From Carcharhinus amblyrhynchos (taxonomy: Eukaryota): a DNA stretch of 64,000 nt. The notes under the pieces were generated by a model. That model saw only the letters and a list, made by a program, of their open reading frames with translations, searched no databases and was not told where the DNA came from. Shown here one piece after another: positions 397 through 45,400 of this stretch; the first letter of the stretch is position 1, and every line of letters starts with the position of its first letter. The position numbers and the translations under genes are program-made. The stretch covers positions 61,256,001 to 61,320,000 of the forward strand of contig OZ336885.1 of NCBI GenBank assembly GCA_965287045.1. Reading direction: 5' to 3'.

Positions 397-423
397 CTTT
401 ATCTTTCATTGTGAATATGCTCT
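397..423 (-). CDS. Micro-exon, 27 nt with GC donor (ESIFTMKDK)
   Basis: attttaattattttag|AGAGCATATTCACAATGAAAGATAAAG|gcaaga; typical AAG|GCAAG context of GC-AG introns; continues the alternation. Confidence 0.7.
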
Positions 424-3400
424 CTAAAATAATTAAAATACGCATATATTATCAACAATGTACAACACAAATGGTCTGATTTTTGTATTTGGGATTCTCG
501 CTCTTTTTTTCCATCATCATCATTTAATTGAGAAACTTCAGAATGTAATGACACTGTCTGTGCATTAATCAATCTATCGTCCAGCGTCAGCAGGTTTACT
601 TCACCCGAATATATCATCATTAAGTAAAACAAAAAAAAAATTAAAGCGGATCATCTGGATGAACATGGAGTCAAAGCTGGGGATTTATTTTTAGACGTGC
701 AGCAAACTGAACATGCTTTTCCATAGCTGTCGGATTAAAAGACGGTTAATAGTGTCCTTGCTGTCGACGTTTCGTCTATCAGTTAATCATTAAGACATTC
801 GTTCTGTTGACAGAAGCCCCTGTAATGAATTAGTACAGATTAAAGCAACTGGATAAAAAAAAGAGGATGCGGAAGGGAGATTTCACAAGTCCAATAATAA
901 TAATTAAAAAATGATTTGGAATATTCTGTTTTGCATTCCAACGATTAAAATGCAACCACAATAATGAAGAGCTAGGTAAGCATCTGAAAAATGTTTCATA
1001 AAATAAGTATAAATTAAAGTGACCACACGATGTTCAAATTGCTATCCTATCCATGGGATGATTCGATGTTGCATGTTTTATAGTACAATGACAATCGTAC
1101 TAATCCATCTTTGATCTCTGAGAGAATGTATTCGTGCATATATTAATTGCGCTTAGGCTTCTGAAGAAAATTGCTATGTTTGCCGTTACGGATTGCTCAA
1201 ACTTCTTCCCACACGAACAATTTCAATCGAAATTTCAAAATCCCACGACATTTTGAGATAATTTCAAAAACAGTGTTCACTCCTCGAGTGACCCTGAATT
1301 ATTTTTTGATTTCATTTCATAACTGCTTAATATAAATATGTTTGATCTGTTTAGTGCACACGAAAAACATATAAAAAATCTTCTCCACAAGTGTTATGTC
1401 AAGCTGCTTCATCATCACTAACACACTGTGTAGCCTCAAAAACAATACTGTGTTTTTCATATAACGCACAATTATTCATGGCATGGAGAAGCTAAACATG
1501 TTCAATGCTTCACTTTTTTTTCTATTATCGACTTTTCGTTAAATGGATGTAGAAATGATTTGCAAGTTTATTATTTCTTGCCTATACCTCAATGCAATAA
1601 ATCATGGACGTCACACAATTCTCGAAGTGCCTGCAGCCAACATTGTAGATTCGCCCTTGCCATCCTCTTCTCGAAGTACTTCCTGGATGTTGCCTCAAAA
1701 TGAGCCAAATAACTCTGAAATATTTCAAAGTCAGCAACTTGTGTGGCTGAGATGATAATTTGTGAGTAGGCTACCGCCATAACTATTTCCCATTGCTTTC
1801 GTCCAGATATTATATCCAGCATGTTCGGAAAGCTATGTGGCAGGCTTTTGATTTGTGGTCGTAATTCGGATGGAAGCTGCACTGTACCTTAATGCGGGCA
1901 GTAGTGAATTCAGAAATGATCGAGTGGGATACAGACCGAATTCATTCCATTATCCTGCATGGTATCAAGCTTTATTGCGTGCTGTAGGAAATGTAATGAT
2001 TCAGAAAATTTACAGTGTTGTACAATTCGCAATACCCTTGAAATCTGCCTCGCTGATTATGAACACGTTTTGACAAATCAATAGATGATCTCCTAACCCC
2101 GAAATACCAGCCTTCATATGGCTCAATTATATGGCTCAATTATTTCATGTATTTTTTGTTTGGTCATTATTAGATCTGCGCATATTGACGCTAATGTATT
2201 CACCGAAAGAACCGCAGCTGAAAGAACAGGGAGTTTTTGGTGTTCTGTATTATCGGCGATAATTGCAGCTTGCCACTTAGTTCATGCGAATTTTACTTGA
2301 TACCTGCCGGTACAATATTGAATTTTGTTCGTGATGGATTACATGCTAGGAATGTATGTTTCAGTATCTGAGAGTTCCTGTACATTTTGCAATAGAAGTG
2401 AAGACCGCCACTAAGTGAGTGCTCACGGTGGCAACATTGCATCCTCTGAATATGCAATGGCCTAAAGCACAACACTTAGCTGTTTTTGCACTTATGGCAT
2501 GTCAATATTTAAGATTGATTCACATAATCCCCCACAAAATTGGTTACAGTGGAGAGTTTGTCTGTCCAAATCCTATACACTTCAGTTTTGCTGAAATGCT
2601 ATTTATATATGCAGCATCATTCATTGTTTGCATCTGAACACAACCTGCTACTTTTACAAACTAAAGAACTTGACTTTTCCCAGGAGGACAATGAAATACA
2701 AATGATTCATTCATGTACCTTTTTCTTCAAGATTTTTCTTCAATTGCTGGCATTCTAGGGATCAATATCGTAATTATACAGTTCATTATATCATAACGAA
2801 TGCCATTGTTGGATGGAGATTGCGAAATTCTGCCTAATGCATGTTGAAATGATGAAAGTATGGCGCCCGATATTTGAGTGCATAAGTTGAGAAGCAGATA
2901 AATTTAAATGCTGATAATGACTTCTCCCCCGCTGTGACAAGATATTTAACGGTGAACGTATAATCCTGCCTATTTGAAATAATTATGAACGTTTGGGAGT
3001 TGATGTTGCTACCTGGTTATGAGTTCGGTTGAAGGCCAACAGACCCTCTAAAGTTGCTGTGCGAGCATTAAGCTCACAAGCAATTAGGGATCGGCAACGT
3101 ATTCTACCCTTGCAGTAATGCTTATACAAGCCTTCTAACGCATTCAGTATATGTTTATCCTTCTGTCATCTGTGTTCATCTAAATTTGACACGGTAACAC
3201 TCTGCACACTTCTAAACGCTACGTGACCAGACCTTCTAAGTTTTAGCTCACTCCAAATTAAATGAAGTAATATACAGCAGAGTAATAAAGTTGGATGATA
3301 ATACATACTTAATAGTACTTTTCCAGTCAAAGTAAGGGAGAAAGATTTGAACGAATATGTGCTTAAAATATATATAGTCAAATTGACACGTTTATTCGCC

Positions 3401-6400
3401 AAATACATATTGTAGCGTGCAGAACAGTGATGTTATACTGTCATATGCTGAAGCTTGCTTCAAAATTCAGTGTTTATTTGCTGGCTATTTCAAAGAACTA
3501 AATGTTGAAGAGGATGCGTGGCTTGTGAGTCGCTGCTCATTAACATAATATTTCCAATAATAAGCGATTTTACCAACAATGGAGTGTTGGCAATATTGTC
3601 TGCGCTCATTGTGCAATAAAAGCGTTTGGATAAACATTCGATATCCGGAATGTTTGAAAAAGCTAAATTGAAAAAAAAGTGTGTTATGATTTGCAGAATA
3701 CGTATGGAAACTGACACGCACGACCCAATTCGGATCTTCAGAATTCTAGTTTTACAGAACGAACGAAGGACATTGAAAGCAAACTGTCTTTCAGAAACAT
3801 GGTGAAAATGATCAAATATTTCCAAGCTAGCCTTGATTGCACCACGCCTTCTATTCAACATTAAAAGATCAGGTCCGTTTGATCATTGTGGCTGGTCCTC
3901 GAAGAGTCCCAATAGACATAACAGGTCATCCATCGCGCTGTGTATTGCAAGGAAGGTAACTATGAGCATTATGTGACAGTTACTTAAATGCCCTGCAGGC
4001 ATATTCGTGCCATTCAGTAACTTTCTGAGGGACTTTTCAGTTCTGACGATTACACTCACAATAGTCTAAAAACAAAATCCCAAATATTGCATGTGGAATT
4101 TTGACTGATCCCTGTGGAGCATAATTTTATGTTGGTCGCCAAAATGAGTAAATGTAATTCCTTTCGAGATAAAATGCCCTGACGTCAACATGCAACATAT
4201 GTCTCTCGTTGCTCTATGATTCCAATAGCTTGGAGATAATATATTTGCTTATTATACAGTGGTTTATCTTCAGGATTTTGGAAATAATTGTGAGGTTATT
4301 CATGTCGGCAGGAAAAAGATAAATGAAATTTATTACCCGAATGGAAAACAGATTCAAAATGTATCCAGGCAGAAAGATCTCGTTGTACACGTTCATGAAT
4401 CGCAGAAAGTCAATACACAAGTGGAGCACGCAATGTCAAAGACAAATAGGATTTTGTCATATATTGCGAAGGGATTAAATTAAAAGTGTAGAAACGTATT
4501 GCAATGGTGTAGGATGTTATTGCGACCACATCTGGAATGCATGTCCAGTTCTTGTCACTTTATTTGAGGAAGAATGTTTTGGCTTTGGGGGGCTTTCAGA
4601 CGCGGTTCACTAGATTGATTCCGAGGATGACGTATGAGGGGGATTAAACATTTTGCGCTCATGCGCAACACATTTTAGAAGATTGAGAGAAGTTCTGATG
4701 CAGGTGCATGACATGGTAAATGGGATTGGGAAAGTAAATGTAGATCGAATTCTTTGACTCATTGGGTACACGAGATGACAGGTACAGTTTGAGGGGCGGT
4801 AGCTTTAACACAAAGTACAAAGAACAACACAGCACGGGAAACAGGCCCTTCGGCCTGTAGGTGGTGAATTTGATGATCTCGCCGCCCCATTGCGTATGGG
4901 AGTCTGAATTGTTCGATCACTTCAAGAAGGGGATACACATATTTCTGATTAGAACGGACAATAACATATGGGATCATGTGTGTAGGTTGACTTGAGACCA
5001 GAGAATGATGAACGGTAATCTGATTTAATGGTGGAGCAGACTTGAATGGCTGAATTTGCATACTTCTGTTCCTAATTCCATGTTTCTACGTTCAAATTAT
5101 ATAAAGTTCTCCCTTCTTACCACTGTCCGTCTGATACAATTGATTATCTATTGCAAACAAGACATAAAGATAATGATTATAAGAGAATTAAGCTTAACTT
5201 AAAACATCCCAGAAAGAAATGCAGGACATATAGTTGACATATAACTTGGTAGCTAGCAGATCGATATTAAGTCAAAATAGAAATGTGTAATGGAAGGTAA
5301 AGAAAATGCAGGTAAGAGCAAAACAAGTGAAGTAACAAAGGAGGAACGTGGATAAGTGATTTTCTTTTTTTTCAAATGAAATTACGTTAACCATCAATGT
5401 GGAAGCATAGCATCAGGTTTAGTGAGATGGTTAATAACGTAACTCACCCTTGTCTATATAAGCTTTATATTGATACATTGTTGTCTAAATTGTGCAGGTT
5501 AACATGTTCCGGGTCTTCTATGGAAGTGCAAAGCAAGTGAAGCCCGGAAAATAAAACGACATCAGGTCCACAATATCTTCAATGTCTCAACTCATTCCAA
5601 ACGTTCCAAAACTGCGTGAATGCTCTTAATAGACGTAACACACGTTGAACTGTGCAATTCACAGAGCAGTCTATGCCTAGAAAGCACATGTCCACAAGAA
5701 CGGTACGAGTCAGTTGTTAACCATCCAACTGCATCGAAAGCTGATAGAATCCTTTCACACTGACGGTTAGCTTAATTTCTCTGCTGAAAAATTACATGTG
5801 CAAATGACGTTTAGTTTAGATTCCATGCTTTATTTCAGTCTTCATTCATGCAAAATACTTCTGCACAAGACCACACATTAGGGTCAGTTCCAAGAGGCTC
5901 AACCGTCTCTAAACCAGCTAAATCCTCCTGTTCGGCGCAAGAGACAATGCGTGTTAAAAGAATGTTTTTGCTCACTGATTGAGATGTACAGCGCAGAACG
6001 AGGACATTCGGCCCGTTGAGTCTGCACTGACCACAATCCTACAGACCCATGCATTAACCCTAGCTAGTCCCACTGACAGTGCGCAGCAATTCAGCATGGA
6101 CAATCCACCTAACCCTGACATCTTTGGACTTTGGTAGGAAAACAACGCAGGCACGGGAACAACATGCAAAATCCACACAGACAGTGGTCCAAGCCGGGAA
6201 TCGAACCCAAGTTGCCGACTTGTGAGGTAGCAGTACTAACCACTGTGTCACCGTGGAACCGGTTGCAATACATCATGCAAAAATGACGATGTTCATACAC
6301 ACGTCTGACATGTCTGAACTGCAAAATAAAATATTGAAATTGCATTTACCAAACATTAGACAAAAAGGCATTTTTTTAATGCAGGTACTGCGCCTCAAAC

Positions 6401-9400
6401 TCTAGTCAATTGATTGCTCGTGAACATAAAAAAATCAGAGAATAACACTTCCTCTTGAAGTCACTGTGTGTTTTGTATTCTTCACCTACCGAGATCTTTG
6501 ACTTTTCTTTTCAGTTTCTCAACAGCTGTGAATGCAAACGACGGATTACTTGAAATACGACCTAAATTGGTATGTGGACAATAACAGTTGAAAATTTAAT
6601 ACTAATACAGCAATAGTTCATCTGAAACAGTTAATCCCCACAGTCTGGCAAATCACTGGCATCAGAAACATGTTACATGAGAGGCATCAATAATGGCCCC
6701 ACATTGGTAATTGAAATGTCCTGCATTGTCTAGATCATGCTACGTTCGTAATTGATTGCGGGGATGCCAATGAAATGCATTCCATCTCCATGGTACACGT
6801 CGTAGAATACCGTTTTGCCTGCATTGGAAGACCAGTGATAACAAAGTGGTCCCTGAAATAAAATAACACTTGTGAAATTTACTGGATTTAGACATCGGTT
6901 TCACTATCAAATCCGTATTTTGCGATACAACGCAACGATCATTCTTTGCATAAATGCTTCGGGGTGTTTTCATAAGACTAGAGAGTTGTTCTGTATTTTA
7001 TTTTACAAAAACAACTTCTGGGAATAACAGGACCCTAAATGTTGACGCATGCATAATGTCGTCATAGTCCTGTGAAACCACCCCCACCCTGCCCATACCC
7101 CAAACCCCACATAACACTCCCCCAAGTTTCTCTCGGCACGTAATGTTTTTAATGCGCTGATAACAATTCTAGGATGTGCCAAGGAACGGGTTATAAAGTT
7201 AAAGTGGCTAGATCAGTGTACTTAGTACTTGAAAGTAGACCTGGCTAACCAACAGAAACGAAGACGTCAACTGCATTGTTAAGATAAAATTGCCGTATTG
7301 AATCTTAATTACAGCTGCTTGCAGAAGATGGGTCCATATCGAAATCATTATTCGTTGGATTAGATCCATATCTGTAGCATGTCCCGCCTTTGCCTGTCAC
7401 AACTTATCTTGCACAGAAACAGACATCCTCAACTTTCCCTCCGCTGGTCCAGTCCATGCACTTTAGCTCAGACCATTTCGCCCAACCGATGGAATTTTCA
7501 ACTACTAAATTCATTGCTTTTGACGCAGACACATTGGATTAAAGATTGGTGGTGTCAGAGAAAGTAGCCAATCGTTCCATTGCCTCGGTGTTGACCGACC
7601 AATGCATTAATCTACAATTGCTTCACGAGCGTCTTCACATCATATGGTTCGCAATCCACCTTTTCAGTTCCGAATCCAATTTGTCTTAATTAGCTCAATA
7701 GGCCACTCTTCAATGACACTCTGTGACAGTACATTCAGAGTCAGACACAAAAATGTCCCTCAGCTTGTCGTTCGTTCGATTGCCAATTGACTACTATCAA
7801 TGTTTCCTGTACGTGATAACTCTACAAATTTAACTAACCTTTCCCAACAGGCTTTCTGTGTAACTGATGACTTTAAATGGCTGCATTGATTTATCTCTCA
7901 AATTTCACTTTTTCTTAAGGAAAGCTGTCACACATTATTCAGTTTATCCAAATAATTAATGTTTGTATCAAATGGAATCATTCTTCAAAAATGGTGTCTG
8001 AATGACCTTCTAACGTATCCCGATCCTTTCAAGGAGTTGTGCCCTGAGCTGGCGAAAATCCTTCAGTTGAGAACGGACAAGTATTCTATACAGTTTAGCA
8101 TTTTCAATTGTCTGATCTATGCCTTTGCTTTTGCCAGTTTTGTTGTGCAGGCCACATTTTTTTTCGCATGCCTTGACACTTCATGTTTTCTCTGTTCTAC
8201 ACAGAGTTAAATTTGGAGATACACTCACATTCAAAATATCTTCGAAAAAGTGACAAACAATAACGCAATAATATGGAGAATATGAAATAAAAAAGGCAGT
8301 CGCAATTTTGATCCATTTTTGATTTTTGCTAGCCAACAGAGAACAGTGCTTGATTGATATATTGTTTTAAGAAAATCTATGCCTGCCCATTATAAGAATG
8401 TTATTCGGACCTGATATTTCGTCGTATACTTCAACGGCTTATGCACTGGCATATAACGGAGAGAAAAAAATAATCAGGCGCTTAGGCAGGAAAATTTAAA
8501 CAGAACGACATGTGTTCTGGTCAGTGTGAAATTGCACATGACTGAAATTGAATAGCCAAAAGCTAAAAGGACGAAATGCTTAACTGATCTGTGGTAACCC
8601 ATCTGAATCATACTTATTTCCATATAACAAAAGCCCACATGAGTTTGAGTGCTCTATTTCAGGACCCACCGGTATGGAAACAATGTTCTGGCGGCTCGAA
8701 ACCACACTGTCTGAGGCAAACACAGGCCGAGCAAAAGAATAGCAGGCAACACTTTGATTACACCTCTGCATTCTGACACCTGCAGGAGCTTATTCATTTT
8801 ATTCATTGATTCGACAATTGCCTGTGTCTCGACTACATGACTATTCCTTGATACGACCAACTCAATCCTGATTGATTGTCCAGACACCAATAATTATCCG
8901 AGCGCCTCTTAAAAAACAGGATCACCTTCAATTTGACCTGGACACCTCACCGCCTGGATCGTATCTGCATCCCAAGCCTTCCCGATAAGGTGCCAGAATG
9001 TGGCTACTGCGGAAAATCCACAATGAATTAATTACAGTATTAGCATGGGCCGACCTGTAGCACTAGCATATACATAATAAACTTTAAACCAATTGCTCAA
9101 AATCTTAACATCTACCTGCATAAACCAGCCACCTGGTAACACAGCCTTTCTTTCCCTTTCCCGTAAATGACACGCCTGACCAGCTAACTAATACACAGCC
9201 AGACGAAAATTATTACTTGAAAGCTTGAATATTTCCAATTCATCACAATGAGAACCAAAGACCACTCTGACCCCGCTGCAACCCACATAAAACAGGCATT
9301 TTTGTCGAGATTTGTATATGACACTACTGGCGTCTATTGCTGACTAATAAATAATTACACTTAATGTAATTCACGATATGCAAACATGCATTACATCTGA

Positions 9401-30400: not shown

Positions 30401-33400
30401 CACAGTACTCCAGCTGCGGCCTCACCAGTGCCCTATACAGCTGCAGCAAGACCTCCCTACTTCTATATTCAATCCCCCTCGCTATGAAGGCCAGCATCCC
30501 ATTAGCCTTCCTGACCACCTGCTGCACCTGCAGGCTGGGTTTTTGCAATTCATGCACAAGGACCCCGAGGTCCCTCTGCACCGTCGCCTGCTGCAGTTTT
30601 TCACCACGTAAGTAATAGTCCTTCCTACCATTATTCCTAACAAAGTGGACCACCTCGCACTTGTCAACATTAAATTCCATTTGTCAGTTCCTGACCCATT
30701 CGCCCAGCCTATCTAGATCCTTCTGCAGACTCTCCACACCCTCCGCGCAATATGCTGTTCCACCAATGTTGGTGTCATCAGCAAATTTCGACATCATACA
30801 CTCGGCTCCCTCCTCCAGATCGTCTATATCAATGGTAAATAGCTGAGGCCCCAGCACCGACCCCTGGGGCACTCCACTAGTCACCAACCGCCAATCCAAA
30901 TAGCACCCACTGACCCCCACTCTCTGCCTCCTATTTGACAGCCAATCCTCTATCGACGCTAACACCCTAACCCCAACTCCATGCCCCCTTACCTTCTGCA
31001 ATAACCTCTTGTGAGGTACCTTGTCAAACGCCTTCTGAAAATCCAGAAAGACCACATCCACCGGCTCTCCTCGATCTACCGCCATAGACACATCCTCATA
31101 GAACACCAATAAATTTGTCAGACAGGACTTCCCCTTAACTAAATCATGCTGCGTCTGCTCTATCAAGCAATTCCCCTCAAGATGCCTCGCTATTTCCTCC
31201 CTAATGACGGATTCGAACATTTTACCTACAACAGACGTTAAACTAACCGGCCTATAATTCCCTGCCTTTTGCCTGCCACCCTTCTTAAACAACGGTGTAA
31301 CATTAGCCGTTTTCCAATCTTCCGGCACTTCCCCGGAATCCAGCGGCGTTTGGAAAATAACCACCAAGGGATCCACTATCACCTCCGCCATATCTTTCAG
31401 AGCCCTTGGATGCATTCCATCCGGTCCTGGGGACTTGTCCACAATCGGTTCCCTCCAGTCTGTCGAGCACCGCCTCTCTAGTAACAATAATGTCATTGAG
31501 ACCCTCCTGTCCTATCATCTTTCCATCGCTAACACCTGGCAAATTATTCACGTCCTCCTCCGTGAAGACCGAAACAAAAAAGTTATTCAAGGTCTCAGCC
31601 ATTTCCCCATCCCCTACCTCTAAGTCCCGCCTCTCATCCTCTAAGGGTCCAACGTTCACCCTAGCCAGCCTCTTCCTTTTTATATATTTATAAAAACTCT
31701 TGCTATCCTTTTTTATATTAAGCGCTAGCCCAGCTTCATAGTTTATCCTACCCTTCTTTATCAACTTCTTTGTCAATCTTTGTTGACTTTTAAACATCTC
31801 CCAATCCTCTTCTCGCCCACTACTCTTAGCTACTCTAAACGCCTCCGCTTTTAATTTAATACTTCCCTTCACCTCCTTCGTTATCCACGGCTTATTACCT
31901 CTCCTCCTAGTTCTCCCTCAGTGTACCCAGACAAGCACCCGAGGGTAGCGACGAGGGATTTTCACAGTAGCTTCATTGCAGTCTGAATGTAAACCTACTT
32001 ATCACCAATAAATAATTACATTTTAATGTAAACTGTCACAGAGAGCTGCAAAGTGGCTGCTGCTTTTCTAGCACAACATGAGAAAATCTGCCGCAGTTCT
32101 ATCCACAATTGAGTGAAATGCATTCAAAACTCGTTTTGCTCGTGAACCAGACCTGTATGCAATAATTGTAAAGAGAGAAAGGCATCCTTATAATTTCAGC
32201 TCGCGTCAGTGAGATCATTTTGGTGTTTCATGAACTTGGTTCGAGAAAAGGAACGACAGCTCATAGACATTCGTAGGTAGCACCTTTGCAGAGATGATTG
32301 TGTTCCCTTGGTCTCTTCAGCTTTCATCAGATGGGTAAAATTATTGCATGATAGCATTCCAAACATACTTCCAACGCTGTCCTGCCCAACGGCGCTTCAT
32401 GCACATACAATGTCAGCCGCGTTCTGCCTTCGATAGGATAGTACATACAAGCTGGAATCATGTTTAATTTCATTGCTGATGTTGATGATTACAAACATCA
32501 TACCGTGTAAAATTGTGACGCTGCTTCAGATTAAAGCTTCAAACAACGATTGATGTGATTTCGATTTCAATCGTGATGGAATGTAATATGAGCGCACGTG
32601 TTCTATAAACTAGCGTGTCACACGTGGCAAAACCAATCGAGGCGAAGATTTTATATTTACTTTATTGTTAATTGCACATCATAATCAAAATAGTTGAAGA
32701 GATGTTCGGTTCTCCTACATTTCGAGGCTGCATTCATTGGATACTCTCTGGGCTTTCAAACAAAACAACGGTACTGAAGATGCTTGACTGAGTATAAACA
32801 GAAGGATAAGTCCCTCCCATGAATGGAAGGTAACGTAACATAGAGCTATGAAGGAATACCATCACGGACAAAACGTTGAATTCGTGGGAATTCTGTCAAA
32901 AGTGCGCTGAAACTGCTGTAGTGGGCTGTTGAAATAGTTTTGAGCCAAGCAACACCAAAGGTATTGTCGATTGACAGAAATTTTGTTCGAGTCATGCTGC
33001 AATGATCATTTTTGTCAAGTTTTCTTCTCTTGGTCGTTGGAATGGAATGAATTATGAAGTTCGACGGAATAATTAATACATTCGGCCCATGCTTCTTGGT
33101 CATTATAACGTTCTACTTGATAAATAAGTCATAGGGGTGTGCGGTGTAGAAAAGTGATACACTGATAGCGCTATATTTTCTTGGATAGTGCATGGGCTAC
33201 GAGTTTCATTCATATCAATCAAAACAAAAGAAACGCTGTAATTATACTTTGAAGAAGCTAACGAAATTCTAGAGTTAACAAATGAACCAAGCGAATGCAA
33301 ACGCTGCCTGCATTATTATCCAAAATCATTTAGAGCAAAATAAAACAGAGCAAATTGCTTATTTCCGTGACATCCGTGAAAGCAATCAAAGTGCATCAGA

Positions 33401-36400
33401 CAACAGAACGTCTAGAAAGAAGTATGGAAAGGAAATTAATGCCCGAACAGTGGAAATGGGTAAAAATGCAGTGGGAAGATGTTAAATATTTCATTGCATT
33501 GAACATTTGAAATAAAATGATTCAAATCAATAATCAATAAATGTGTATGATGTGTGAGGATATTTATAGAAACATATTTATAAGCCGATAGATAATGAAA
33601 TTTGATTAACTAAGTGTAAGATTTATGAAGAAAGGCAACATTTAAATAATAACAAAATATTATATTTGTGCTCCATCTGTCAATGCAGGACGAGCCACGT
33701 TCAGTGCAGATATACTATTTTACTTCGGCTGGACAAGACTGAGCATTAGTTTGATGTTGTTAAGACTACAGAAAGAATTGGTCGTATGTATCAGTGATTT
33801 ATAGACACTGTCATCCGCAATCTCCAGCGAACCCCCCGCTTGAGCACTTTGCAAGCATCAAGGAACAATTCGGGATGGGTAAAAAATATACTGCGATACC
33901 AACGGACGGCCCAATCCTTTTCTATGTACTTGAAAACACATTTTCAAGATAACCAGCAATTTCAGTTCGTAAGGTACATTTTACTTACAACATTTCTTTA
34001 TAGAACGAAAAGATGCATATAAAGAAATGTGAGGCTTTGTTTGTCAATTAGATTAATTATGATCACGGAATAGCAAGGGCGATGATATCATGGTAACTCC
34101 AGTGTTCAATTTAAAGGGGCGGAGGAGTTTGGATATGAATCTAGTATCTTAAGCTGAATTAAATTGAATTTACTTCGGTGGAGTTTACATTTTGAAAACG
34201 AAGGTGGTAAAAGTGGAATGAAAATTATACAAAGGGACGTTAACACAAAGATGATTTATACCTTCCTGCATCGTCAAAATTACTGTAGTCTCCCAATATA
34301 ATGTTCTATCCATAACGCATGAGATAGTTAATGATGCAATCACAATAAAACTGAAATTAGTTCTAAGTGTTGTGAAAGTGAGGTGTGGGTCAGAAAAAAG
34401 TGAAATTCGCAAAGAAAACATCGTTAATAGGGCCCGCACGGCGGCACAGTTGTAAGCACAACTGCCTCATAGTGTCAGGGGCCTGGTTTCGATTCCGGGC
34501 TTTGATCTCTGTGTGTAGTTTGCACACTGTTCCTGTGTCTGCATGTGTTTCCTCCGGGTGCTCTGGTTTCCTCCCACATTCCAAAGTTGTACAGGTTAGG
34601 TTGAATGGTCATGCTAAATTGTCTCTTCGTGTCAGGAACTTAGTAATATTATTGGGTAGGATTCAGTGGATTGAGGGTGGCTGGGATTGTGTTCGGGGCA
34701 GGCTTGAGGGGCCGAATGTCCTCATTCTGCACTGTACGGATTCCAGGAATAGTTATATAAATAGTATTGTCATGTATCAGAGAGAAATTTTATCTTGAAA
34801 TTTGCGAGACATCAATACATGTTTACTAAAAACAATGATGTTCCTGTAGATCTTCGGAAAAGGAAATACGTTATTGGGAAGTAAGGGGATGCTCTAATTA
34901 GATGTGCATGTGCAATCACCATAATCGACTCAAGTTATCCCAATGCGGCTATAAGTCAATTTCCCATAGCAATAAAGTAACGCGGAAACAGTTGCGCTAC
35001 TGTTGCCACAATATAACTGCAAAATACAGGGAGAAATACCTGATGAGTTTACTGTATATCTGAAGATATGTCATAAGCCCTCGAACTTAACTCAATTTCT
35101 CACTCCACAGATGCGGCCAGACTTGTTCGTTGTATGAAGCAGTTTCTATTACTAACCTAGCCCACAACTGTTGACACACTCATTCTTCAATATTTTGGTT
35201 CTGAAATAATGATTGCACGAGCTGCAGTCTTCCTAAATTGTTTGACACTGGGAGGGTACTGTTACCGGACAACACATTTTATGAAATTGGGCACACAAAA
35301 TGGAAGCAAACTAAAGCTTTCCTCAGAGCCCTCCACTAAAATCACAAAGTGACGGACTCTGATCAGTAGGCAAGAGTATTCTTTTTGAATGCAAATGAGA
35401 GCTAGCACATAAGGGAAATTGGACAGGATAGCACCTACAGGAACTAAATTAAAGAACACATCCCAACCCCATCAAAATCAGCACTTCTAAACCAGGCAAA
35501 CAAATCATGGAGACACCTAAAATTAACATAGTTAGGGAAAGCTTCCCTGGCCCCTCACAACTCTTGAGATCGATAACGCACCTATGGTTCAAATCCCAGA
35601 GATTCTGGAGCATTGATAACCAACCAGACAAAAACGATTAACACACACTTGAAACAATTGCTCCAACACTTGAAAACATCGAAACAGGATGGCTGAAGTC
35701 AAATACTGTAAATAAAGGATTAGCATTTGAAACGCGAAGTTCAGATATAACTGTAGCCCGTTGTGGGGGAGTCTTTAGAGCGCTTTCGGGACAGTCCGAT
35801 TGTATGTCCTGACTGCTTCTCCGTTGACGTAAAAAGAAAATAAAACTGTGCCGTTATTGAATTCACCCTGAGTCCGTAGTGGTCGTTTCTCCCACTCGCG
35901 CTAAAAGAAACGAAAGACTTGAAATCAGTAAGTCTATTTTCTGTTCGGTTACTGCAAGAAAATCTATAATGACCAGAATATTACGACCGTGTTTCTGTCG
36001 TAGGTCGGGGTGGTAAGGTAAAACGGAAATAAAAAAGGTAAAATAGAAACGAATCGTGTCCATATTGGTACCATTCTGTGTGTGCGCGCGCGAGTGGTGA
36101 GCACTAAATGGGAGAAATATCAAATAGCATGCAGTTCTGTATATCTCCATATAATTACTATGGTAGGCATGCAATTGTTCCCACGGTTTTGACTTGCCTT
36201 CATCTACAGCCAATGCATAAACGGTTGCTCGGGAGTGATTGAGGGTTCCGTATTGGAGAACGGTGATAATTCATTCCCTCTGGCCCGCAGATGCATCCAG
36301 GAGGTGACAGATGACCTGTTCATCCAGACAGTCGAGCACATTCATTCCGGCGTTAGCTGCGCCCAGCTGGAAGCAGGGCTGCAGGCTTTGCCGCCATAAA

Positions 36401-39400
36401 TCGGATGTCAAATTTGCAGGGAGCCACTGATATTTCCCAGATCATACTACAATTCATTTGCTGTCAGATACTGCAATTAGTTAACAGTATATATCTTTGC
36501 CATGTCGTTCATCCCATTCAATTTGAGATGCGACACTGTCAGTGAGGGGGAGTTGGAAGGCCCTGCAACAGTAGCAGCTTCCAGGGTGCCAGGCCCCGTC
36601 ATGTTCAGCATATCCTACTCCTCTGTGTGCCAAGGGGCCTAAGGGCTACTCAGTGGAATGGCGGAGCCGCTCGTCTGAGCTGCATAACCCCAGCGTCACC
36701 TAGGTCTGCCATTCCTGCAGGCCGAACTGCGCTTTCCTCATTGTGTTTGAACTCTTAGCAATAGTCTTCTGAGTCTGGGTCAAACTTTTGATATTCCTAG
36801 CAAATACCTGCTGAGACTAAGCCAAGCTCTGCAGCGCCTGACTGTGTCTAGGCCAAGCTCTCGAGTCCCTGTGCCATGGTCCACTGCATGCCCCGGGACT
36901 AAGCTGTGCCTTGGACCTTGCCACCCATGGCAATTATCTCCTGCCCCAGACTTTCCACTATAAAAGTCATGCTTGCAGTTTGGCCTGTGTACACACTGTG
37001 CCGCCACCAGCTTTTGCAACCGAATGCAGCGGGAACCTTTCCAACTGCCTCACAATTTTGCTGACAGCCGCTCCCGCATTCCCTCGTTCAGATGCTGCAT
37101 TTCCAGCATCTTAGGGAGAGCTAACCGCAGCGACCCCGCATCTGTTGTGGATCCAGCTGAATTCTTGGCACAGGCCTCGTACATTTCCGATTCCACCCAA
37201 AGTACTTCCACTGTTGTGTCATGCACAGCAAACAGTGACAGGGAAGCATTATCACTAATTTTACCGCCGTGACAATAGTGTGGGCGCTGCTGTGTTGCAT
37301 GGGGGAAACTGTGTATCATGACACGTGCTAGCTTCAGAGGTTTCCTTGGGACCTTGTTTAGAGACTTCCTCCGAGCTGCCACGAGATGTCTCAGCGCGAG
37401 CAGTGTGCGTTGGGTGTGGAAGCCGACAAGCCAGGGAATGCAGGATGGACCCAGAAACATTACAAGGCTGCTAGATGTCTTTATATCTATTTGATGAACC
37501 TGTTTGTTTTCTAAATCTGTTGGGTGGAAAGCGAGCTTATTCTCTCTGCCAGGTTACTAACTTTTATATGTTTCAGTCCCATCGGTTTTCTGCTTTGTGT
37601 AGTCGGCTACCTATGTCTCATAAAATATTTGCCTTTGATAGTCAGAAATGATAAAGGAACAACACACCCTGGTACATGTTTCTATCTTTGCAATTCACAC
37701 CTCAATCCAAGACTCGCCTGCTACTCTATGTACGGAACAAATCACATCTCTTTGCACTGCTAAATGGCTTCGAATCCGGTTTCTTATCAATCTCAATTTC
37801 AGATGTTAAACTCGTTCACTTCCCAAACGCGAGGATACATTATTTCAGAGAAAGACGGCATTAGTTTTGGCGCGAAGTGGTTTTAGGAAGAGAGTGTTAC
37901 ATCGGAAGGAAACGTCTTGCCGTTTATTTCCAGGGGGGAAAGAAAAGGTCAAAATGCATGTAAAACAATAATTCTGCATCATGTATAATCTCGGCGGGAC
38001 CTCCGCTGTTGCGATATAAAAGACCATGAAAGCCTTCTGATCGACAAAGAAGGAAAGGATTACAGGTGAAAGTGAGACAACTTGAGTTGCAGCCACATCA
38101 TGAGCGAGCTCAATTCTCTGGAATAGCAGATCAGTTCCATAGAGATGAATGTCCTCTTCCCAACCTGAGGTCTTCGTTCTTCAATACTAATATATTAATA
38201 TAACACCATGTTGTGCTATTTGTTCAACAACTTGAATTTTTGAACGTAATTCTTTCCGGTCTTCCTCATTCTTGGTTAATCTTTCATTGGAATTATTTCA
38301 GAAAACATGAAATAAGCTTATTCCTCGGTATGATAAATTGTTTTTGGAGAACATTTTGAACAATTTGGAATTATACTCTTTGACGTTTATAACAACGACA
38401 AGTGTTCTTAATGAAACCTACGGCATATTATCTTGTTTGCATTATTTTTCCATCGAAGTTTGAAGTTGCAAAGTGCAAGTGCAAAACATATGTTTCCCTT
38501 CCTGTTGGAATTTGGAACATTTGTCAGCCGCTTAAAAACACGACGAATCATTTGAATGGAGGGATTTCAATTTCGTCTGAAAGTAGTGATGGATTGTGTT
38601 TTTTTTTCAGATGATGTGCTGATAAACATTACTTTGTGTATACTCAAGGCTGACTTCGATAGATATATGAAATGCAAGAGATTCAAGGGACGTGGAGAGC
38701 ACACGGTAATTACGAGATAATGCACTGTACGATGAAGCAAACATTGGAGATGATGGGACATCGTGTAGAACTTACTCCCACGCAATTTTCATATATGTAA
38801 TTCTACGTTCTATTTTATAATAGGAGTCAATTTTTCAATACTACCGACTTGAATCATCATAGAATCCTACAATGCAGAAACAGACCCTTCGGCTCATCGA
38901 GTCTGCTGGGACCACAATCCCACCCAGGCCCTACCCCCATATCCCTACACATTTTACCCGCTAATCCCTCTAACCTAAGCATCTTAGTACACTAAGGGAC
39001 AATTTTAACATGGCCAATCAACCTAACCCAAACATCTTTGGACTATGAGAGGAAAACAAAGCAGCCGGAGAAAACCCACCAGACACGAGGAGAATGTGCA
39101 AACTCCACACAGGCAGTGACCCGAGATGGGAATCGAACCCAGGTCCCTGGAGCTGGGAAGCAGTGCTAACCACTGTGCTATCGTGCCGTCCACTTACAGT
39201 TCTAATCATATCGTGCTTAATATTCGTAGTAGCCAGAATATTGGCATTATTGATGGAACCACATGGATGCTACGAACGTATTCGAGACACAATATTCCAA
39301 TATCAATTACAAAGCAAAGTGCTAACGCGAAAAACAACTGTGCTTCATTCGATAAATGGGCGTGAAGTATTTTTACTCTGTGTTGCGTGGTTGTCCTACA

Positions 39401-42400
39401 AGGAGATTACAAAGTTCATCACGTATCCACAGCAAATATTAAGTGGAACAAATGGTGTAAGAGCCTAGAATACAGATGTCCAACACATGAAACTACATAA
39501 GTATTTCCGCATTTTTATGAGATCTCATTGAGAAAAAGTAAGGAAGGCTCGAAAGTTGTGCGACACCACGAATAGTATGTTTTGGTTTGAGATGCGCAAC
39601 GAATGTTTATTTCGATGATTTCACGGATACGTGTATTGTACCAGGCAATTCAGTTAAACGGCTTCACATATTTTTATATTTATGGCGACAAGTTATTAAT
39701 TTATTTTAACTTTTTTAGAATTATCAACGATAATTTCGTTGTTAACAGGGTTCACGTATAGAAAGATAAGAGACAGGATCAGAAGAAGTGGCAGTCGATT
39801 TATCACAGGAAATAATAAGCAATGCGTTAACTTGGAGCGGTCTACATGTTTTGAAGAGTCCTGAACAGAATTATGTGATGATGCAGAAGATCGGCAGATT
39901 CATGTTAACGCTGAAAAGCTTAAGACAATGTTAAATTATTTACGACTGTATGAACAATGCAGTGAGGAATATTTCACATATAGAATTCAGAATGATCCTG
40001 AATGCGGCACATAATTAAATAGCTGACTGGTCCACTCAAGGTGCTATTCCCAATGATCATATGCAACTGCTATCAATAATAATAAGTGCGCAAATATAAT
40101 GCTAGCTGTTTTCGTCCAATATCTAAAAGACACTATAATTTCGGTCACAGCTGCATGTCAAATTAATGTTATTTTCGTGATCTTTAAGTAATTTTGGAAT
40201 GCAAACGGACACAAAAAATATTCCCAAATACAAAACCGAAGCCGGGTCGCGGGTAATTGCTGCGACAGCTTGTCAGTTACTCTGTTGACTGGAGAAACTC
40301 ACACCACAAATTCGAAAGCAGCAACTTGCAATGACATGAACAATTTCTGGCATGAGAATGTCTCAATGGATATCACGTGTGGTATAAATGAAGTAATGGC
40401 GCCACCTCCATTTCTGTGAATGTGGGACAGACGCCGGGCAGCTCTTTCGAAATCCGGGTTCACGTCTGGGCAGTAATGTCTGTTAACGAGCTAAAGACTT
40501 GCACAGTTTTCGGAAAGTGAAACAATTGCTTGGATTCCAGGGCACTGATGGCACTGCAGCTAAAAGCGGCAGAAGTGGTGCACCAAGAACATTTCGGAGA
40601 GATGTGGGCTGCTGTAATTCGATTGTGCGGGTCAGGATGTTTTAAAGCGATGCAAAGTTAGTGAGCAAAGCTTCAATATAGAACCAGTGAAGATAATCGA
40701 GAACAAATGGTATATCGCTGCGCAGAAAGAATTTGCAGCTAAAGTCATCCTACAGATATTTGACTGCCAGCTTTGTTTTAATGGCAGCTGTCAGCAATGC
40801 AGTCATGCAGGTTCCTTCAGAATCTTTCATAACACCGCATTGTCCCCATAAATAAACACCACTTCAGAAATGCTGCTTGGTTCTTTGGGGCAAAATATTC
40901 TTGCTACGCAATCTGACTTTTTTGTTCAACATTAAAGTGTGGTTGTGGGGGTCGGAGGCAAACGTAGTTTGAACAGCCATCTTCATTATATATATACTTC
41001 CTAATTATTCATTTTCCTGTGCTATTCTCAAACTTCTGCATAACGAGAGCCGTTTGGATCACCAGGACATTTCCCTTTGAAAAATAACTCCACATTGTAA
41101 TTTTCCTTATGAACGTATATTGTACAGTGCTTCCCACAAAAAAAAATCAGAAACACAAGCTGTATCATGACCACCTAGTTTGCAATTACTTGTGGAGTTA
41201 AATATCAATGTTTCTAATCTCTCAAACACGTCCGTACTAATAGAATAAAAGTAAGGCAAATCTAAAATTTCCTACTTACGACAGTCTGCAAGTAATGCTT
41301 GCACATTTGTTCGTTCTGATATATAAAAAAAAACATCAATGTATACTGTTATATTGGCAACCGCTGTTGTTGAAGGATATCAGAAAACGAGTGATACGCA
41401 TTTTTTAAAAACAGAAATTGAACATAACAAATCAACGGTAGATTTTTTTTATAGTTCACTCCTCTAAAATTCAGTGGGCTATAGCTCGCCACGTCTATTC
41501 GCCGCATAAAGAAATACATTTCCATTCGTTTTATTTGTGTTCCTTTTAACATGCGAAACATACGCTTCTTCACCTCTGCTTTATTTACAAATCGAAGCCA
41601 ATCGTCGTCGTAGAATTGGCATGACGTCCCTTATGAGTTCACTGGTGTCGCTGCTGTTCAAACGCTTATTTTACCAAGGGAATCATGCTGCCAGTGCATT
41701 CCGTACTCACAGATGTCCTCCGTCCTCAGCTCCTGTAAACATGCCCTCAGTCAGATCTGACCCGACTTCTAATTCATCGTCACCTCCGTCTCTGCCCGAA
41801 TATGGACTAAAGTAACGCACACAAATTAAAAAAAAAAATCAGACCCTCAGACTGAACCGCACTGCTGACTGCTGGACAACGAGGCCAACATTCAGGACGC
41901 ATCTTGGCCTTGGGCCGACTCCCTCCAAACTCAGGACTAATTATAGTCCGAGCAGCCTTCTGTATGCTTGGCCTTCGGGACGCCACCCTCATCCTAACCT
42001 GGGAAAGCTTAACTCCATGGTTAGACCATAATGCTCCCGTCGGTCAGAGCGAAAGCAAAAATATTGGAAAAATTGATAGTTAATTGGTTCTAAATAACGT
42101 AACTGGACAGTCTATCTGGAATCAATGCCCTGCAATTTATTAATGGAAAGCAGAGATTGTTAGCACGGTTACCTAAGCTTCATGCACGGGAGTTCATAAG
42201 TATTGGCAGTGTGCACAAATTCCAGGAAAGGATGAAGCATAACATAAAATTCATGTTTAGACAATAACATTTGTATTTTGCTCAATTTGGAGTTGGTGGT
42301 GAGGAGCTGGATTGCAATCTTCAGGGACCATTCGAAGGCTCAGGTGATTTTGAAGAAAGCATTTCCGAAAATGGTGCCGAAACTGGCTCGGTCTAATTAT

Positions 42401-45400
42401 AAGCTGGTTCATGTTGTTGATTTCGGGCTTTAACGATTTTGGCATATCTCTTTGCTGCTATCTTCAATTTCTTGATGTTTGCTGCAATGCAAAGTTTTGT
42501 GTCGATTGTCACGTTTCAAACTTTCAGTATTTCAAATTCCTCTATCAATTACACGTTAAACCTGTCATTCGATGTTTTGTTCAAATTAGCCAGAGAAATG
42601 CGTGCCGTTCCGGTCATTTCAATTCTCCGGATTAATTTGCGTGCCCCTTCTATTGTGAAATTGTTCCCAACATATACTGCAGTGAAATGGAAGCTGAAAA
42701 TGAGGTGAAAATCATTTTTTGTTGGTTTCTGGGAACCTCAACATCGACGGGAAGCAATACCATTGGAAATGAACGTTTAATTTTGATTCACTGCGCGTTC
42801 ATATAAAAAGGTTAAAATCAATTGCATGCAACACATCATTGCCATGCAATTCACACCATGCTCCTTCTTCTGCGCTCTATCATCTCCCCACATCCTTTGT
42901 GTCCCAGAGTTGTCTTTCGAATCGCCTGCTTCATTAAAAAATGTCGTTTTCTCCTTGCAAGTTAAGTATCCACAGAACAACTGGTGTCATCTGCTCGCGC
43001 CATCAACAGCGCCTTCCTGCACGCATCCTCCTCCCAATTCACCCCCCCCCCCCCCGCCTTCCACCACCACTGTCACCTCAGCACTCTCCCAGAACACCAC
43101 AAATGTGACCATCGGTTCGAACCTAATGTTGGAGGAGCTAATGAGATCGTTGCAGCAATTTGAGGAGAGGTGGAATTTAGTGGTGTGATTGCGCGTAAAA
43201 GGTGGAGGGGGTGGGGTGGTGGGCAAAGCGGCGGAGCGGGTGGTGCGCTACTGGAACTCGTGGTGAGCAGCTGGATGGATTATAAGGCACAGTGTTGATT
43301 TATGTATTGTTATAACGAATATTTCCAGGTATGTTGCTGTCGGCTGAATTTATTTGTAAATCAAATGGTATGAGGCTGTGTAATTTCACTATGTCTGGTT
43401 TAAATTGCTTAAAACTTGGTGAGGAATAGAAGGATTGCTCTAACTAAGTGATGTTCTTAACATGCAAAGACATTATTGGCAGTCGCATGTAGGCCCGCGA
43501 GCTTTGCAAAGGCCTCCCACAGAGTTTATACTGAAGTTCGAAAACAAATAGTCATGTTCATAGATATTTACGGGAGGGACTGAAGTTTCATTTAGGACTA
43601 GAATGTAATTGTCAATACTATTGATTTCAGCGAGGAAAGCATTAAAACAATGTGCTGACAATGCCAAATGGACTGAATTCAAACGATTTTAAATGTCTCA
43701 AGGCAATTCGTTGTAGGATGCTTGCTTACTATTGTTTTTCTTTCGCAGCTGTTCCTCTGTTTCAAATTATAAATCTGATTGTAAATTTTGTAAACCATAC
43801 CAAACTTTGTAGTAGGTTGAGACAATTAGATGAAAAAAAAGTTTTACTCTCTTAATATAAAATCCGTGTATTGTTCCCCAAAGTTCAGAGTAGTTTCTTC
43901 ATGTTTGAGATAATGTATTCAATAACCAGTTCAAAATTCACATGTAGACCTTTTGTCCAGAAAATATTCGGGTAATGCAACTTACACTTCATCAACATAT
44001 TGTAGAACAGATAACTTTATACAGCCCGGGGTTGTTTTGAAATTGAATAACCATGATGACCTGTGTTTTACGGACGAGATTTACCATGCAACGACACTGG
44101 ATAAGGCGCCATAGTTTTAAAAAGGCGGTAATTCAAAAGCTTTACCTCTTTTGTGGGCAGTATTTGGATGTTGGGGAGGGAAGATGCTCGTCTGTCGTCG
44201 TCATAAAACATGCAACATTGTGCGCAATATATTTGTTTCCAGGACGAAATGAATTATCGGGAGGAAGCAGAATACTAATTAGAGTAACCAAGCCCGATGA
44301 TGTGGTGCAGTTCAGTAGCAACAACTCAGAAGGAGTACGATGTGAACTCATATTCTGACACTTTCAGGGGCAAGGGAACTTGATGGGAAGAAAAGCGTGA
44401 CAGGATTATTAAAGAATTGCGCACTCGGAAGGAAAACAATGGATGACAATGTGAATTAAGAATTATTGCTTTTAAATTGTTACAGAAAAAAAAGTTCAAA
44501 ATGCAGGAGTATTCGTTCATTCACAGAGAATATTTCACAGATTCAATAAAATGACAACAATATAAATGTCAGAGAAATTAACTCGTGTGGTTGATCCATC
44601 GTGTGCTTCCAGATGTTTCATACTATTTTGGTGGTGGTCACCAACATATAAACATAAAAGGTAGGAATTAACTACCTGTAAAAATTCTTCAGTAATATCG
44701 GGGGGCGGGGGGGGGGGGAATAGTTTACGTAGGTATGCGCAGCACATTATTAGTTTTTTTTAAATTTGATTATTTTCTGTCTATTTTTTTTAATCAAATA
44801 TAGCCTTTCTTGTAAAATCAGAGGAGTCTTTTTTTTAATCATTTAGCTACTTTTACTTCGTCCCTGATTTAAGTCTCCCAAATCACCTCGTCATTATTTC
44901 CACTATGCTGAAAAGTTTGTTTAGTCCTGGTGCGTGGGCATCCAAAACAGCTGCCAATAATCAATCAACGGCTAAACATCGCGCTTCCTCTTCTCGATTT
45001 GGTAACAATAACATCAGAATCCGATCTGATCTGAACGATGAAAACATCTCATTTCTTCCACCGATCTTGATAAATAAAAGCAATGGACACAGACCTAACA
45101 TCTCATGCTGGACATCTGCGAGACATTATCCACTAGCTAATCTATGCAACAACAGTCTACCATGTGTAGAACGGACACAACCTCAAAAAGCAGTGAACCA
45201 GCAAGAGGGCTATCCTGCTTCTGTTAAGGGTCAGCAACATAAGAACATAAGAAATAGGAGCAAGAGTAGGCCATCTAGCCCTTCGAGCCTGCCCCACCAT
45301 TCAATAAGATCATGGCTGATGCAAGGCGTTATATTGGTTAGCACCGCTGCCTCACAGCGCCCACGCGCATCGCCGTCATGTCACTATCGTTGCCGAGTCT

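Follow-up and report, generated by a model that had tools for sequence, protein, structure and literature searches.

How does a gene assembled from very small exons keep a heptad register when neither of its exon sizes is a multiple of 21 nt? The question is raised by a 64,000-nt stretch of Carcharhinus amblyrhynchos DNA (assembly GCA_965287045.1, contig OZ336885.1, positions 61,256,001-61,320,000 of the forward strand), referred to here as the window. An earlier note on this DNA had described eleven consecutive exons in strict 27/36-nt alternation, each pair encoding 21 residues. We propose that the window lies in the middle of a single large minus-strand gene, that the coding part of this gene within the window consists only of phase-1 mini-exons, and that these exons encode a coiled-coil rod that grew as exon pairs were copied along with their introns and is now partly decaying. 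We assign this explanation, taken as a whole, a probability of roughly 0.7.

All exons described here are sequence predictions, and splice scores were computed with an approximate matrix drawn from general knowledge. The eleven exons, which we designate A-type (27 nt) and L-type (36 nt) and name by their higher coordinate, were recovered on the minus strand as phase-1/phase-1 candidates, with an AG acceptor in every case:

43730..43756, minus strand: 27-nt A-type exon, the first of the eleven; weak acceptor (0.3), donor 5.3
41280..41315, minus strand: 36-nt L-type exon, the most divergent of its type, with Arg at codon 2
22183..22209, minus strand: 27-nt A-type exon, from splice-site scan and leave-one-out ranking; acceptor 4.6
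19811..19846, minus strand: 36-nt L-type exon, from splice-site scan and leave-one-out ranking
16638..16664, minus strand: 27-nt A-type exon, from splice-site scan and leave-one-out ranking
14381..14416, minus strand: 36-nt L-type exon, from splice-site scan and leave-one-out ranking
13663..13689, minus strand: 27-nt A-type exon, from splice-site scan and leave-one-out ranking
6490..6525, minus strand: 36-nt L-type exon, paralog of 14381-14416
5121..5147, minus strand: 27-nt A-type exon, from splice-site scan and leave-one-out ranking
2719..2754, minus strand: 36-nt L-type exon, from splice-site scan and leave-one-out ranking
397..423, minus strand: 27-nt A-type exon with a GC donor, the last exon visible in the window

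Joined, these exons form one open frame with 0 stops; the two alternative frames have 9 and 11. At a splice score of at least 10, candidates of 27 nt number 12 on the minus strand and 1 on the plus strand, and those of 36 nt number 10 and 4, respectively; the mean for other lengths is 2.6 on the minus strand and 2.4 on the plus strand. When each training exon was left out in turn, the six 36-mers took the top 6 places among 381 candidates, and 12 of the 13 27-mers took the top 12 among 441. The remaining 27-mer, 423-397, fell to 15th through the penalty on its GC donor. It is extremely unlikely that the exons are chance AG...GT windows picked out by pattern-seeking. Several acceptors are weak (0.3-3.5), and at least 12 plus-strand pseudo-exons score above 10.7, but chance windows would not be expected to show an enrichment for exactly 27 and 36 nt that is confined to one strand, a clean leave-one-out separation, and paralogous introns.

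The heptad pattern reported for the last four modules was reproduced exactly, with M,L,L / I,V,M / V,V,L / C,L,F in columns 2, 9 and 16 and Leu at position 5 of every one of the four. The first module, which that claim omitted, has Arg at position 2 and Val at position 5. Furthermore, the 12 hydrophobic positions are not 12 independent observations, because they represent three columns of a duplicated module. Across the whole eleven-exon product, hydrophobic residues occupy 15 of 16 a positions and 9 of 16 d positions, as compared with 1-2 of 16-17 at each other position. The d positions are the weaker: module column 5 is hydrophobic in 5/5 modules and columns 12 and 19 in 2/5 each, and Lys or Arg is found at 4/16. 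Periodicity peaks at 3.50 residues with a power of 16.0, and is only 0.9 at 3.6 residues; the 113 residues include no Pro and no Gly. The joined peptide thus shows the canonical heptad combination of a 3.5-residue periodicity, an a/d core and freedom from helix breakers, over at least 16 heptads. By exon type, L codons 2, 5 and 9 are each hydrophobic in 7/8 exons and A codon 4 in 9/10, and the second codon position is the most conserved (0.62 vs 0.35 and 0.44 for L; 0.45 vs 0.41 and 0.32 for A).

The periodicity depends on the order of the exons. A power of 16.0 was matched by 0/5000 residue shuffles and by 11/5000 exon-order shuffles; all 507 alternating exon orders give this value, and none of 5993 non-alternating orders reaches it (maximum, 15.3). 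Hence, the proposal that heptad phase is held by 27+36 pairs stands, although by chance ~13% of size pairs (16/120) would also sum to a multiple of 21. From its sequence, we expect the joined product to be an alpha-helical rod, with a coiled coil most likely. The weakness of the d positions in module columns 12 and 19, the two relic exons and the one GC donor would suit a single helix, amphipathic or charged, or a pseudogene in decay. We consider it very unlikely that the segment is either of these rather than a functional coiled coil, given the sharpness of the peak at 3.50 and the fact that a chain of 19 exons, extended upstream, is stop-free with canonical sites apart from the GC donor of 423-397. 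The one N-glycosylation sequon in 188 residues is uninformative as to kinship with type II C-type lectin necks.

The mini-exon array as a whole comprises 19 well-supported predicted phase-1 exons plus exon 29277, spread across 61 kb of the minus strand, and the introns between the listed exons and relics are 0.7-12 kb long. Beyond the eleven, the array includes:

61410..61436, minus strand: 27-nt A-type exon, the first well-supported exon of the window
58583..58609, minus strand: 27-nt B-type exon, paralog of 55402-55428 with the upstream intron included
57087..57113, minus strand: 27-nt C-type exon
55402..55428, minus strand: 27-nt B-type exon resembling the first nine L-type codons (L-type rank 3/2260)
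53638..53664, minus strand: 27-nt C-type exon, second half of a 27+27 pair
52712..52747, minus strand: 36-nt L-type exon, upstream of the eleven
49354..49380, minus strand: 27-nt A-type exon, upstream of the eleven
48115..48141, minus strand: 27-nt A-type exon, upstream of the eleven
47367..47402, minus strand: relic L-type exon of 36 nt; good acceptor, open frame, AT in place of the GT donor
29251..29277, minus strand: 27-nt A-type exon inside the supposed 19,070-nt intron; AG and GT intact, open, weak acceptor; duplicate of 22183-22209
27589..27624, minus strand: probable 36-nt L-type relic; has an acceptor but lacks a donor at +36, with a cryptic in-frame one at +54

Three further candidates were seen: 51216-51202 (15 nt), 63201-63175 (27 nt) and 53350-53315 (36 nt), the last with strong splice sites but not L-type (rank 66,931). 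We dropped 28655-28629 (27 nt), which is dissimilar to the exon set.

The eleven exons are neither consecutive nor part of a strict alternation. The supposed intron of 19,070 nt contains 29277, an intact, open paralog of 22209, and the sizes upstream run 27,27,27,27,27,36,27,27, with weak periodicity in the 27-nt block (power 2.6-4.4). Counting exons with intact splice sites, the alternation fails at 29277 and again at 49380/48141/43756; from 22209 to 397, a run of nine exons, no break was detected. The register breaks if orphan exon 29277 is spliced in: adding it and skipping 27624 lowers the power from 16.0 to 5.0, and a power of 5.0-7.5 results when every exon with intact sites is chained. 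Inclusion of 29277 inserts 9 residues (2 mod 7), and the upstream units are 18 residues long (4 mod 7). The acceptor of 29277 is A-rich and decayed, scoring 0.4 as compared with 4.6 in 22209.

Do the breaks mark the loss of L exons? The best non-training matches to the 36-nt type, other than B-type exon 55428, are 27624 (6th of 2260 AG sites, 119th in a ranking of 127,918) and 47402 (7th of 2260 and 7th of 127,918). Both lie within gaps between neighbouring A exons, which hold 196 of the 2260 AG sites; simple arithmetic gives ~0.008 for two such matches. If both are taken as 36 nt, the in-phase alternation extends to 15 exons, with 20/22 a positions hydrophobic and a power of 18.8. Judged by these matches, 27624 is probably a relic L exon. 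Searches for flank homology found none for 27624 (score 30-35 vs a null mean of 34) or for 47402, and the interval from 49380 to 48141 contains no relic that has splice sites. Two other positions were rejected as relics: 48321 (rank 475, without AG or GT in register) and 24568 (rank 925, without splice sites in register).

Two intragenic duplications are visible in the introns:

28162..37923, minus strand: copy 1 of an old tandem duplication, with exon 29277 and a LINE insertion missing from copy 2
20956..26890, minus strand: copy 2 of the old tandem duplication, with exon 22209
57412..59082, minus strand: first copy of the duplicated 27+27 pair, matching 55902-53956
53956..55902, minus strand: second copy of the duplicated 27+27 pair

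The copies of the old duplication, 37923-28162 and 26890-20956, are collinear (nhmmer E down to 3.5e-18; blastn identity ~59-63%). Of 376 flank pairs, the one formed by exons 29277 and 22209 ranks first; these two are identical over 13 nt spanning the donor, and no other identical run in the duplicated block exceeds 11 nt. Percent identities from a gapped aligner were discarded, random pairs also reaching 0.63, and significance was taken from flank-pair ranking, blastn and nhmmer. Since the introns are paralogous, the exons were duplicated together with them. For the 27+27 block, collinear intron homology covers both halves. Alignment of the 27+36 unit is limited to the 27-nt exon and the introns, the 36-nt partner being a probable relic with no detectable flank homology. 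Because neither 27624 nor 47402 has such homology, we only infer that the duplicated unit included the L exon. Where duplicate status is clear, the exons themselves share little identity (0.44 and 0.56).

We therefore favor duplication of exon pairs, with later decay, as the history of the rod. There would have been two ancestral exon types, L with core codons 2, 5, 9 and 12, and A with core codon 4, which together encode three heptads (21 residues). Tandem duplication of these pairs with their introns, probably through unequal crossing-over, would have lengthened the rod; duplication in pairs conserves the reading frame and the heptad phase automatically. Some copies would have decayed later, leaving two L exons with no usable donor, and the alternation would therefore be an ancestral pattern that is imperfect gene-wide. 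By analogy with the BG cytoplasmic tail, the product may serve as a dimerising rod or spacer.

Is the register still policed in the present transcript? If so, 29277 would be skipped or mutually exclusive with 22209, the extra upstream A exons would come as a pair (18 residues, or one stutter), and the eleven-exon chain would be a real mRNA. We regard this as a tentative possibility. It fits the decay of the 29277 acceptor and the recovery of power when that exon is left out. Moreover, in coiled coils a 2-residue insertion, to which 9 residues are equivalent modulo 7, is described as one of the most straining, and a periodicity of 18 residues per 5 turns as accessible (PMC4786415); loss of a splice site can also affect neighboring exons (PMC9313022). 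However, 29277 retains its AG, its GT, its 27-nt length and its open frame, the identity with 22209 across the donor suggests continued use, and the acceptor of 43756 is equally weak, yet that exon is counted among the eleven.

It is possible to the same limited degree that the alternation is a mere footprint of duplication, with breaks tolerated, orphan A exons constitutive, and no selection on phase at the level of pairs. The core columns have stayed hydrophobic despite divergence and nine exons alternate unbroken, which argues against such indifference; the strong splice sites of the upstream 27-nt exons, the apparent loss of two L exons next to A exons that retain their sites, and the low identity of the clear duplicates, suggestive of relaxed constraint, argue for it. 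Rather unlikely, in our judgment, is a stronger proposal, that the gene both evolves and is spliced in whole exon pairs, so that the only length changes to survive are those of 21 residues, which are neutral, or of 18, which amount to one stutter. An L exon that lost its donor would then have its 27-nt partner co-skipped or made mutually exclusive with a duplicate. Were this true, the constraint on splicing would be counted in residues modulo 7 and not in bases modulo 3, and rod-length isoforms would come in three-heptad steps.

The earlier note had contrasted this locus with the one-heptad, 21-nt exons of BG genes. The difference in size holds, and 21-nt candidates are at background in the window (3 per strand at a splice score of at least 10). 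The contrast was otherwise overstated, because BG heptads also straddle exons: a true heptad "spans two exons", the exons split codons, and some are 18 or 24 nt (PMC5938342). Indeed, the chicken BG cytoplasmic tail resembles the array in its many split-codon mini-exons and long heptad coiled coil; its exon number varies, and the a residue lies at exon codon 4, as in the A-type exons here (PMC5938342, PMC4046983). In BG the d residue is the last (7th) exon codon, whereas A-type codon 7 is hydrophobic in only 2/10. BG exons encode one heptad each, and those here sum to 63 nt in pairs. The signal peptide, single IgV and TM exons that the BG architecture places upstream would fall outside this window.

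There is no evidence within the window for BG or butyrophilin kinship. A Pfam search of all 136 minus-strand ORFs of at least 62 aa gave four matches, three LINE-related and one sub-threshold Sex_peptide, and none to Ig, B30.2 or C-type lectin domains; the gene extends beyond the window, which has no convincing transmembrane exon and no Rfam match. BTN genes also carry a 27-nt juxtamembrane exon. The array is like BTN/BTNL and ERMAP genes in deriving heptads from small exons, juxtamembrane in those genes; exon 5 of BTN3A1 encodes 7 aa (PMC4337483). Unlike mammalian BTNs, which have few heptads before B30.2 (PMC5938342), it encodes at least 16, and no B30.2 exon is in the window. The IgV-IgC-TM part upstream and the B30.2 domain downstream that mark a butyrophilin would both lie beyond it. 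Butyrophilins are present in cartilaginous fishes, with heptad number variable across vertebrates (PMC12841164). If the gene is a B7/butyrophilin-family member, BG-like long tails would extend to cartilaginous fishes.

The pattern also resembles type II C-type lectin necks and the CD23 (FCER2) stalk. That stalk has 21-residue repeats, each encoded by one 63-nt exon. Here two exons encode each 21-mer, and no lectin domain is in the window. The heptad coiled coil of CD23 mediates trimers (PMC6791321). Olduvai (DUF1220) doublets of NBPF are similar in that the repeat unit is an exon doublet and exon-intron blocks are duplicated intragenically, but the first exon is mostly 52 nt, the second is larger, sequence kinship is not suggested, and the available part of that account describes no heptad-sum logic (PMC9313022).

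Coiled-coil tails made from mini-exons are already known, in BG, and so, separately, are repeats built of exon doublets, in Olduvai. A two-exon unit that is a heptad multiple only as a pair, 27/36-nt pairs included, was not found in the open-access literature searched. With an orphan 27-nt exon that adds 9 residues (2 mod 7) beside upstream units of 18 residues (4 mod 7), the locus is a natural experiment.

The eleven minus-strand exons predicted by the earlier note, alternating between 27 and 36 nt from 43756 down to 397, were all found again when both strands were scanned with approximate splice-site matrices whose values come from general knowledge. At a splice score of at least 10, 27-nt candidates number 12 on the minus strand and one on the plus strand, and 36-nt candidates 10 and four, respectively; other lengths on the minus strand average 2.6. 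Acceptors are AG in 11/11 exons, donors GT in 10/11 and GC in 1/11, and the joined chain has a single open frame, the other two being interrupted by 9 and 11 stops. In leave-one-out profiles, six 36-mers (five from the chain and exon 52747) take the top ranks among 381 candidates, and 12 of the 13 27-mers occupy top ranks among 441. Judged from sequence, the predicted exons are very likely real. The residues listed by the earlier note for the last four modules (21-residue products of a 27+36-nt exon pair) match exactly, but in the first module position 2 is Arg and position 5 is Val, and the exon series is not unbroken, since its 19,070-nt intron holds an extra exon, 29277. The exons and relics discussed individually are:

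61436, 58609, 57113, 55428 and 53664 (-), upstream exons, 27 nt each, in this order
52747-52712 (-), next upstream exon, 36 nt
49380 and 48141 (-), last upstream exons, 27 nt each
47402-47367 (-), candidate relic of a 36-nt exon
29277-29251 (-), orphan 27-nt exon
27624-27589 (-), candidate relic of a 36-nt exon
22209-22183 (-), 27-nt exon homologous to 29277

In the 113-residue chain, which lacks Pro and Gly, heptad position a is hydrophobic in 15/16 cases, d in 9/16 and the remaining positions in 1-2 of 16-17, although these positions are homologous columns and hence not independent observations. Hydrophobic periodicity is maximal at 3.50 residues (power 16.0; 0.9 at 3.6), a value matched by 0/5000 residue shuffles and 11/5000 exon-order shuffles. 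All 507 alternating exon orders reach 16.0, whereas the 5993 non-alternating orders stay at or below 15.3; heptad phase is therefore a property of the two exon classes in alternation. The proposal that exon pairs keep the register is supported in part; d positions are dependably hydrophobic at module column 5 alone (5/5, against 2/5 at each of columns 12 and 19). Of 120 possible size pairs, 16 sum to a multiple of 21, and an alternating run of 11 among 19 exons has a probability of ~0.002 under random order. We propose, with a probability of roughly 0.7, that the gene encodes a coiled-coil rod expanded by duplication of exon pairs together with their introns, some copies of which are decaying. 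A single such duplication would keep both the frame and the heptad phase. By analogy, the rod may act as an oligomerising rod or spacer.

The 19,070-nt intron harbours a tandem duplication, 37923-28162 being collinear with 26890-20956 by nhmmer and 59-63% identical by blastn (E to 5.6e-22); the diagonal shifts across a LINE found in the first copy only. Exon 29277, overlooked in the earlier note, lies in this first copy. Its flanks paired with those of 22209 rank top of 376 pairs (upstream p 0.0003, downstream p 0.001), and the two exons share a 13-nt identical run spanning the donor, longer than any other in the duplicated block. AG and GT are intact in 29277, its frame is open and codon 4 is hydrophobic; its acceptor is weak (score 0.4), and the general 27-nt profile places it no higher than 19th among 441 candidates. 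Adding 29277 alone to the chain lowers the power to 5.0. Within the explanation proposed here there are two equally tentative alternatives: the present mRNA may skip 29277 and stay in strict register, or it may tolerate breaks in register.

A 36-nt class profile applied to 2260 acceptor sites, no donor being required, ranked four training exons first, followed by 55428 (a B-type exon, half of a 27+27 pair), 27624 and 47402. The first candidate relic, 27624, lies between 29277 and 22209, with no donor at +36 and a weak in-frame donor at +54. In 47402, which is located between 48141 and 43756, AT stands in place of the expected GT. Among 127,918 frame positions, 47402 ranks 7th and 27624 119th. 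We found no homology between the flanks of either and those of other 36-nt exons, and for this reason 27624 in particular is only a probable relic. With both read as 36 nt, in-phase alternation reaches 15 exons, with a hydrophobic in 20/22 and power 18.8; with the 54-nt form of 27624, power is 6.9.

Further upstream, 59082-57412 matches 55902-53956, and therefore a 27+27 pair (18 residues) has also been duplicated. Periodicity in this upstream block is weak (power 2.6-4.4). In one account of coiled coils, a period of 18 residues per five turns is accessible, and insertions of 2 or 6 residues are the most straining, with beta-layers in trimers (PMC4786415).

The locus works like the tail of chicken BG, in which the split-codon exons are described as mostly 21 nt long, occasionally 18 or 24 nt, the true heptad extending over two exons (PMC5938342, PMC4046983, PMC8813856). 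Hence a register that runs across exons has a precedent, whereas the exon sizes here are new; the dependence of phase on alternation holds, but the contrast with BG drawn in the earlier note is overstated. Because its exons, unlike most BG exons, are not 21 nt long, and because membership-defining domains lie outside the window, we assign the locus to no family. The repeat exons of CD23 are 63 nt long. Published descriptions include a heptad stalk in CD23 (PMC6791321), a 7-residue exon 5 in BTN3A1 (PMC4337483, PMC7348870), the occurrence of butyrophilins in cartilaginous fishes and their variable heptad number across vertebrates (PMC12841164), and Olduvai domains as exon doublets amplified via intragenic duplication (PMC9313022). 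No 27/36-nt alternating heptad module was found described in the literature searched, mostly papers available without subscription.

The whole window, vertebrate-type DNA of ~40% G+C with dispersed repeats, sits within the mini-exon region of a single gene. Pfam returned no Ig, B30.2 or lectin domain in 136/136 minus-strand ORFs of at least 62 aa; across the window, a transmembrane exon search gave nothing convincing and no Rfam family was found. Other exon-like elements also occur in the window. A 42-nt element (19546-19505, minus strand; splice scores 4.8 + 12.2, a very strong donor) follows exon 19846 and contains stops in the gene's frame, and a similar 100-nt segment (5856-5755; E 4.5e-6) follows exon 6525; the element may be left over from a duplication, derive from a repeat, or represent a truncating or poison exon. 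An open 36-nt candidate at 53350-53315 (-), whose splice score of 19.1 is exceeded by only one other on that strand, contains proline and does not resemble the 36-nt exons of the alternating class; it is possibly an alternative exon interrupting the helix. Open candidates of 15 nt (51216-51202, minus strand; 13.9) and 27 nt (63201-63175, minus strand; 12.2) are indistinguishable from background.

The LINE fragment of the first duplicate copy, missing from the second, spans about 29850-31917 (-), with related pieces at 26191-25276 and 20926-20594. Its reverse-transcriptase ORF (30687-31508, Pfam RVT_1) is, among the named matches in the best 120 of 5686, most identical to cartilaginous-fish sequences: Scyliorhinus torazame 67% (a second Scyliorhinus match 54%), Hypanus sabinus 62% and Callorhinchus milii 59-62%, with birds and turtles at 45-57%. 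This points, indirectly, to a likely chondrichthyan origin of the DNA. Further LINE remnants lie at 23468-23166 (-), with a weak Exo_endo_phos match, and at 51750-52367 (+), where an ALKBH8_N match presumably marks a LINE tail. Just upstream of exon 22209, 22968-22826 and 22498-22339 are the two copies of a short, local tandem duplication with a spacing of 470 nt. An inverted pair (35258-35724 / 49257-48792; 467 nt, 89.5% identity) is probably a younger mobile element, and a perfect (GAA)25 microsatellite (56571-56647) lies inside an intronic purine-rich tract. A SINE-like family, which we take to resemble shark HE1/V-SINEs, has copies in both orientations at:

5986-6255
14550-14737
29578-29767
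34424-34743
38858-39193
45864-46196
46586-46770
49490-49682
54841-55023
59078-59229
60583-61139
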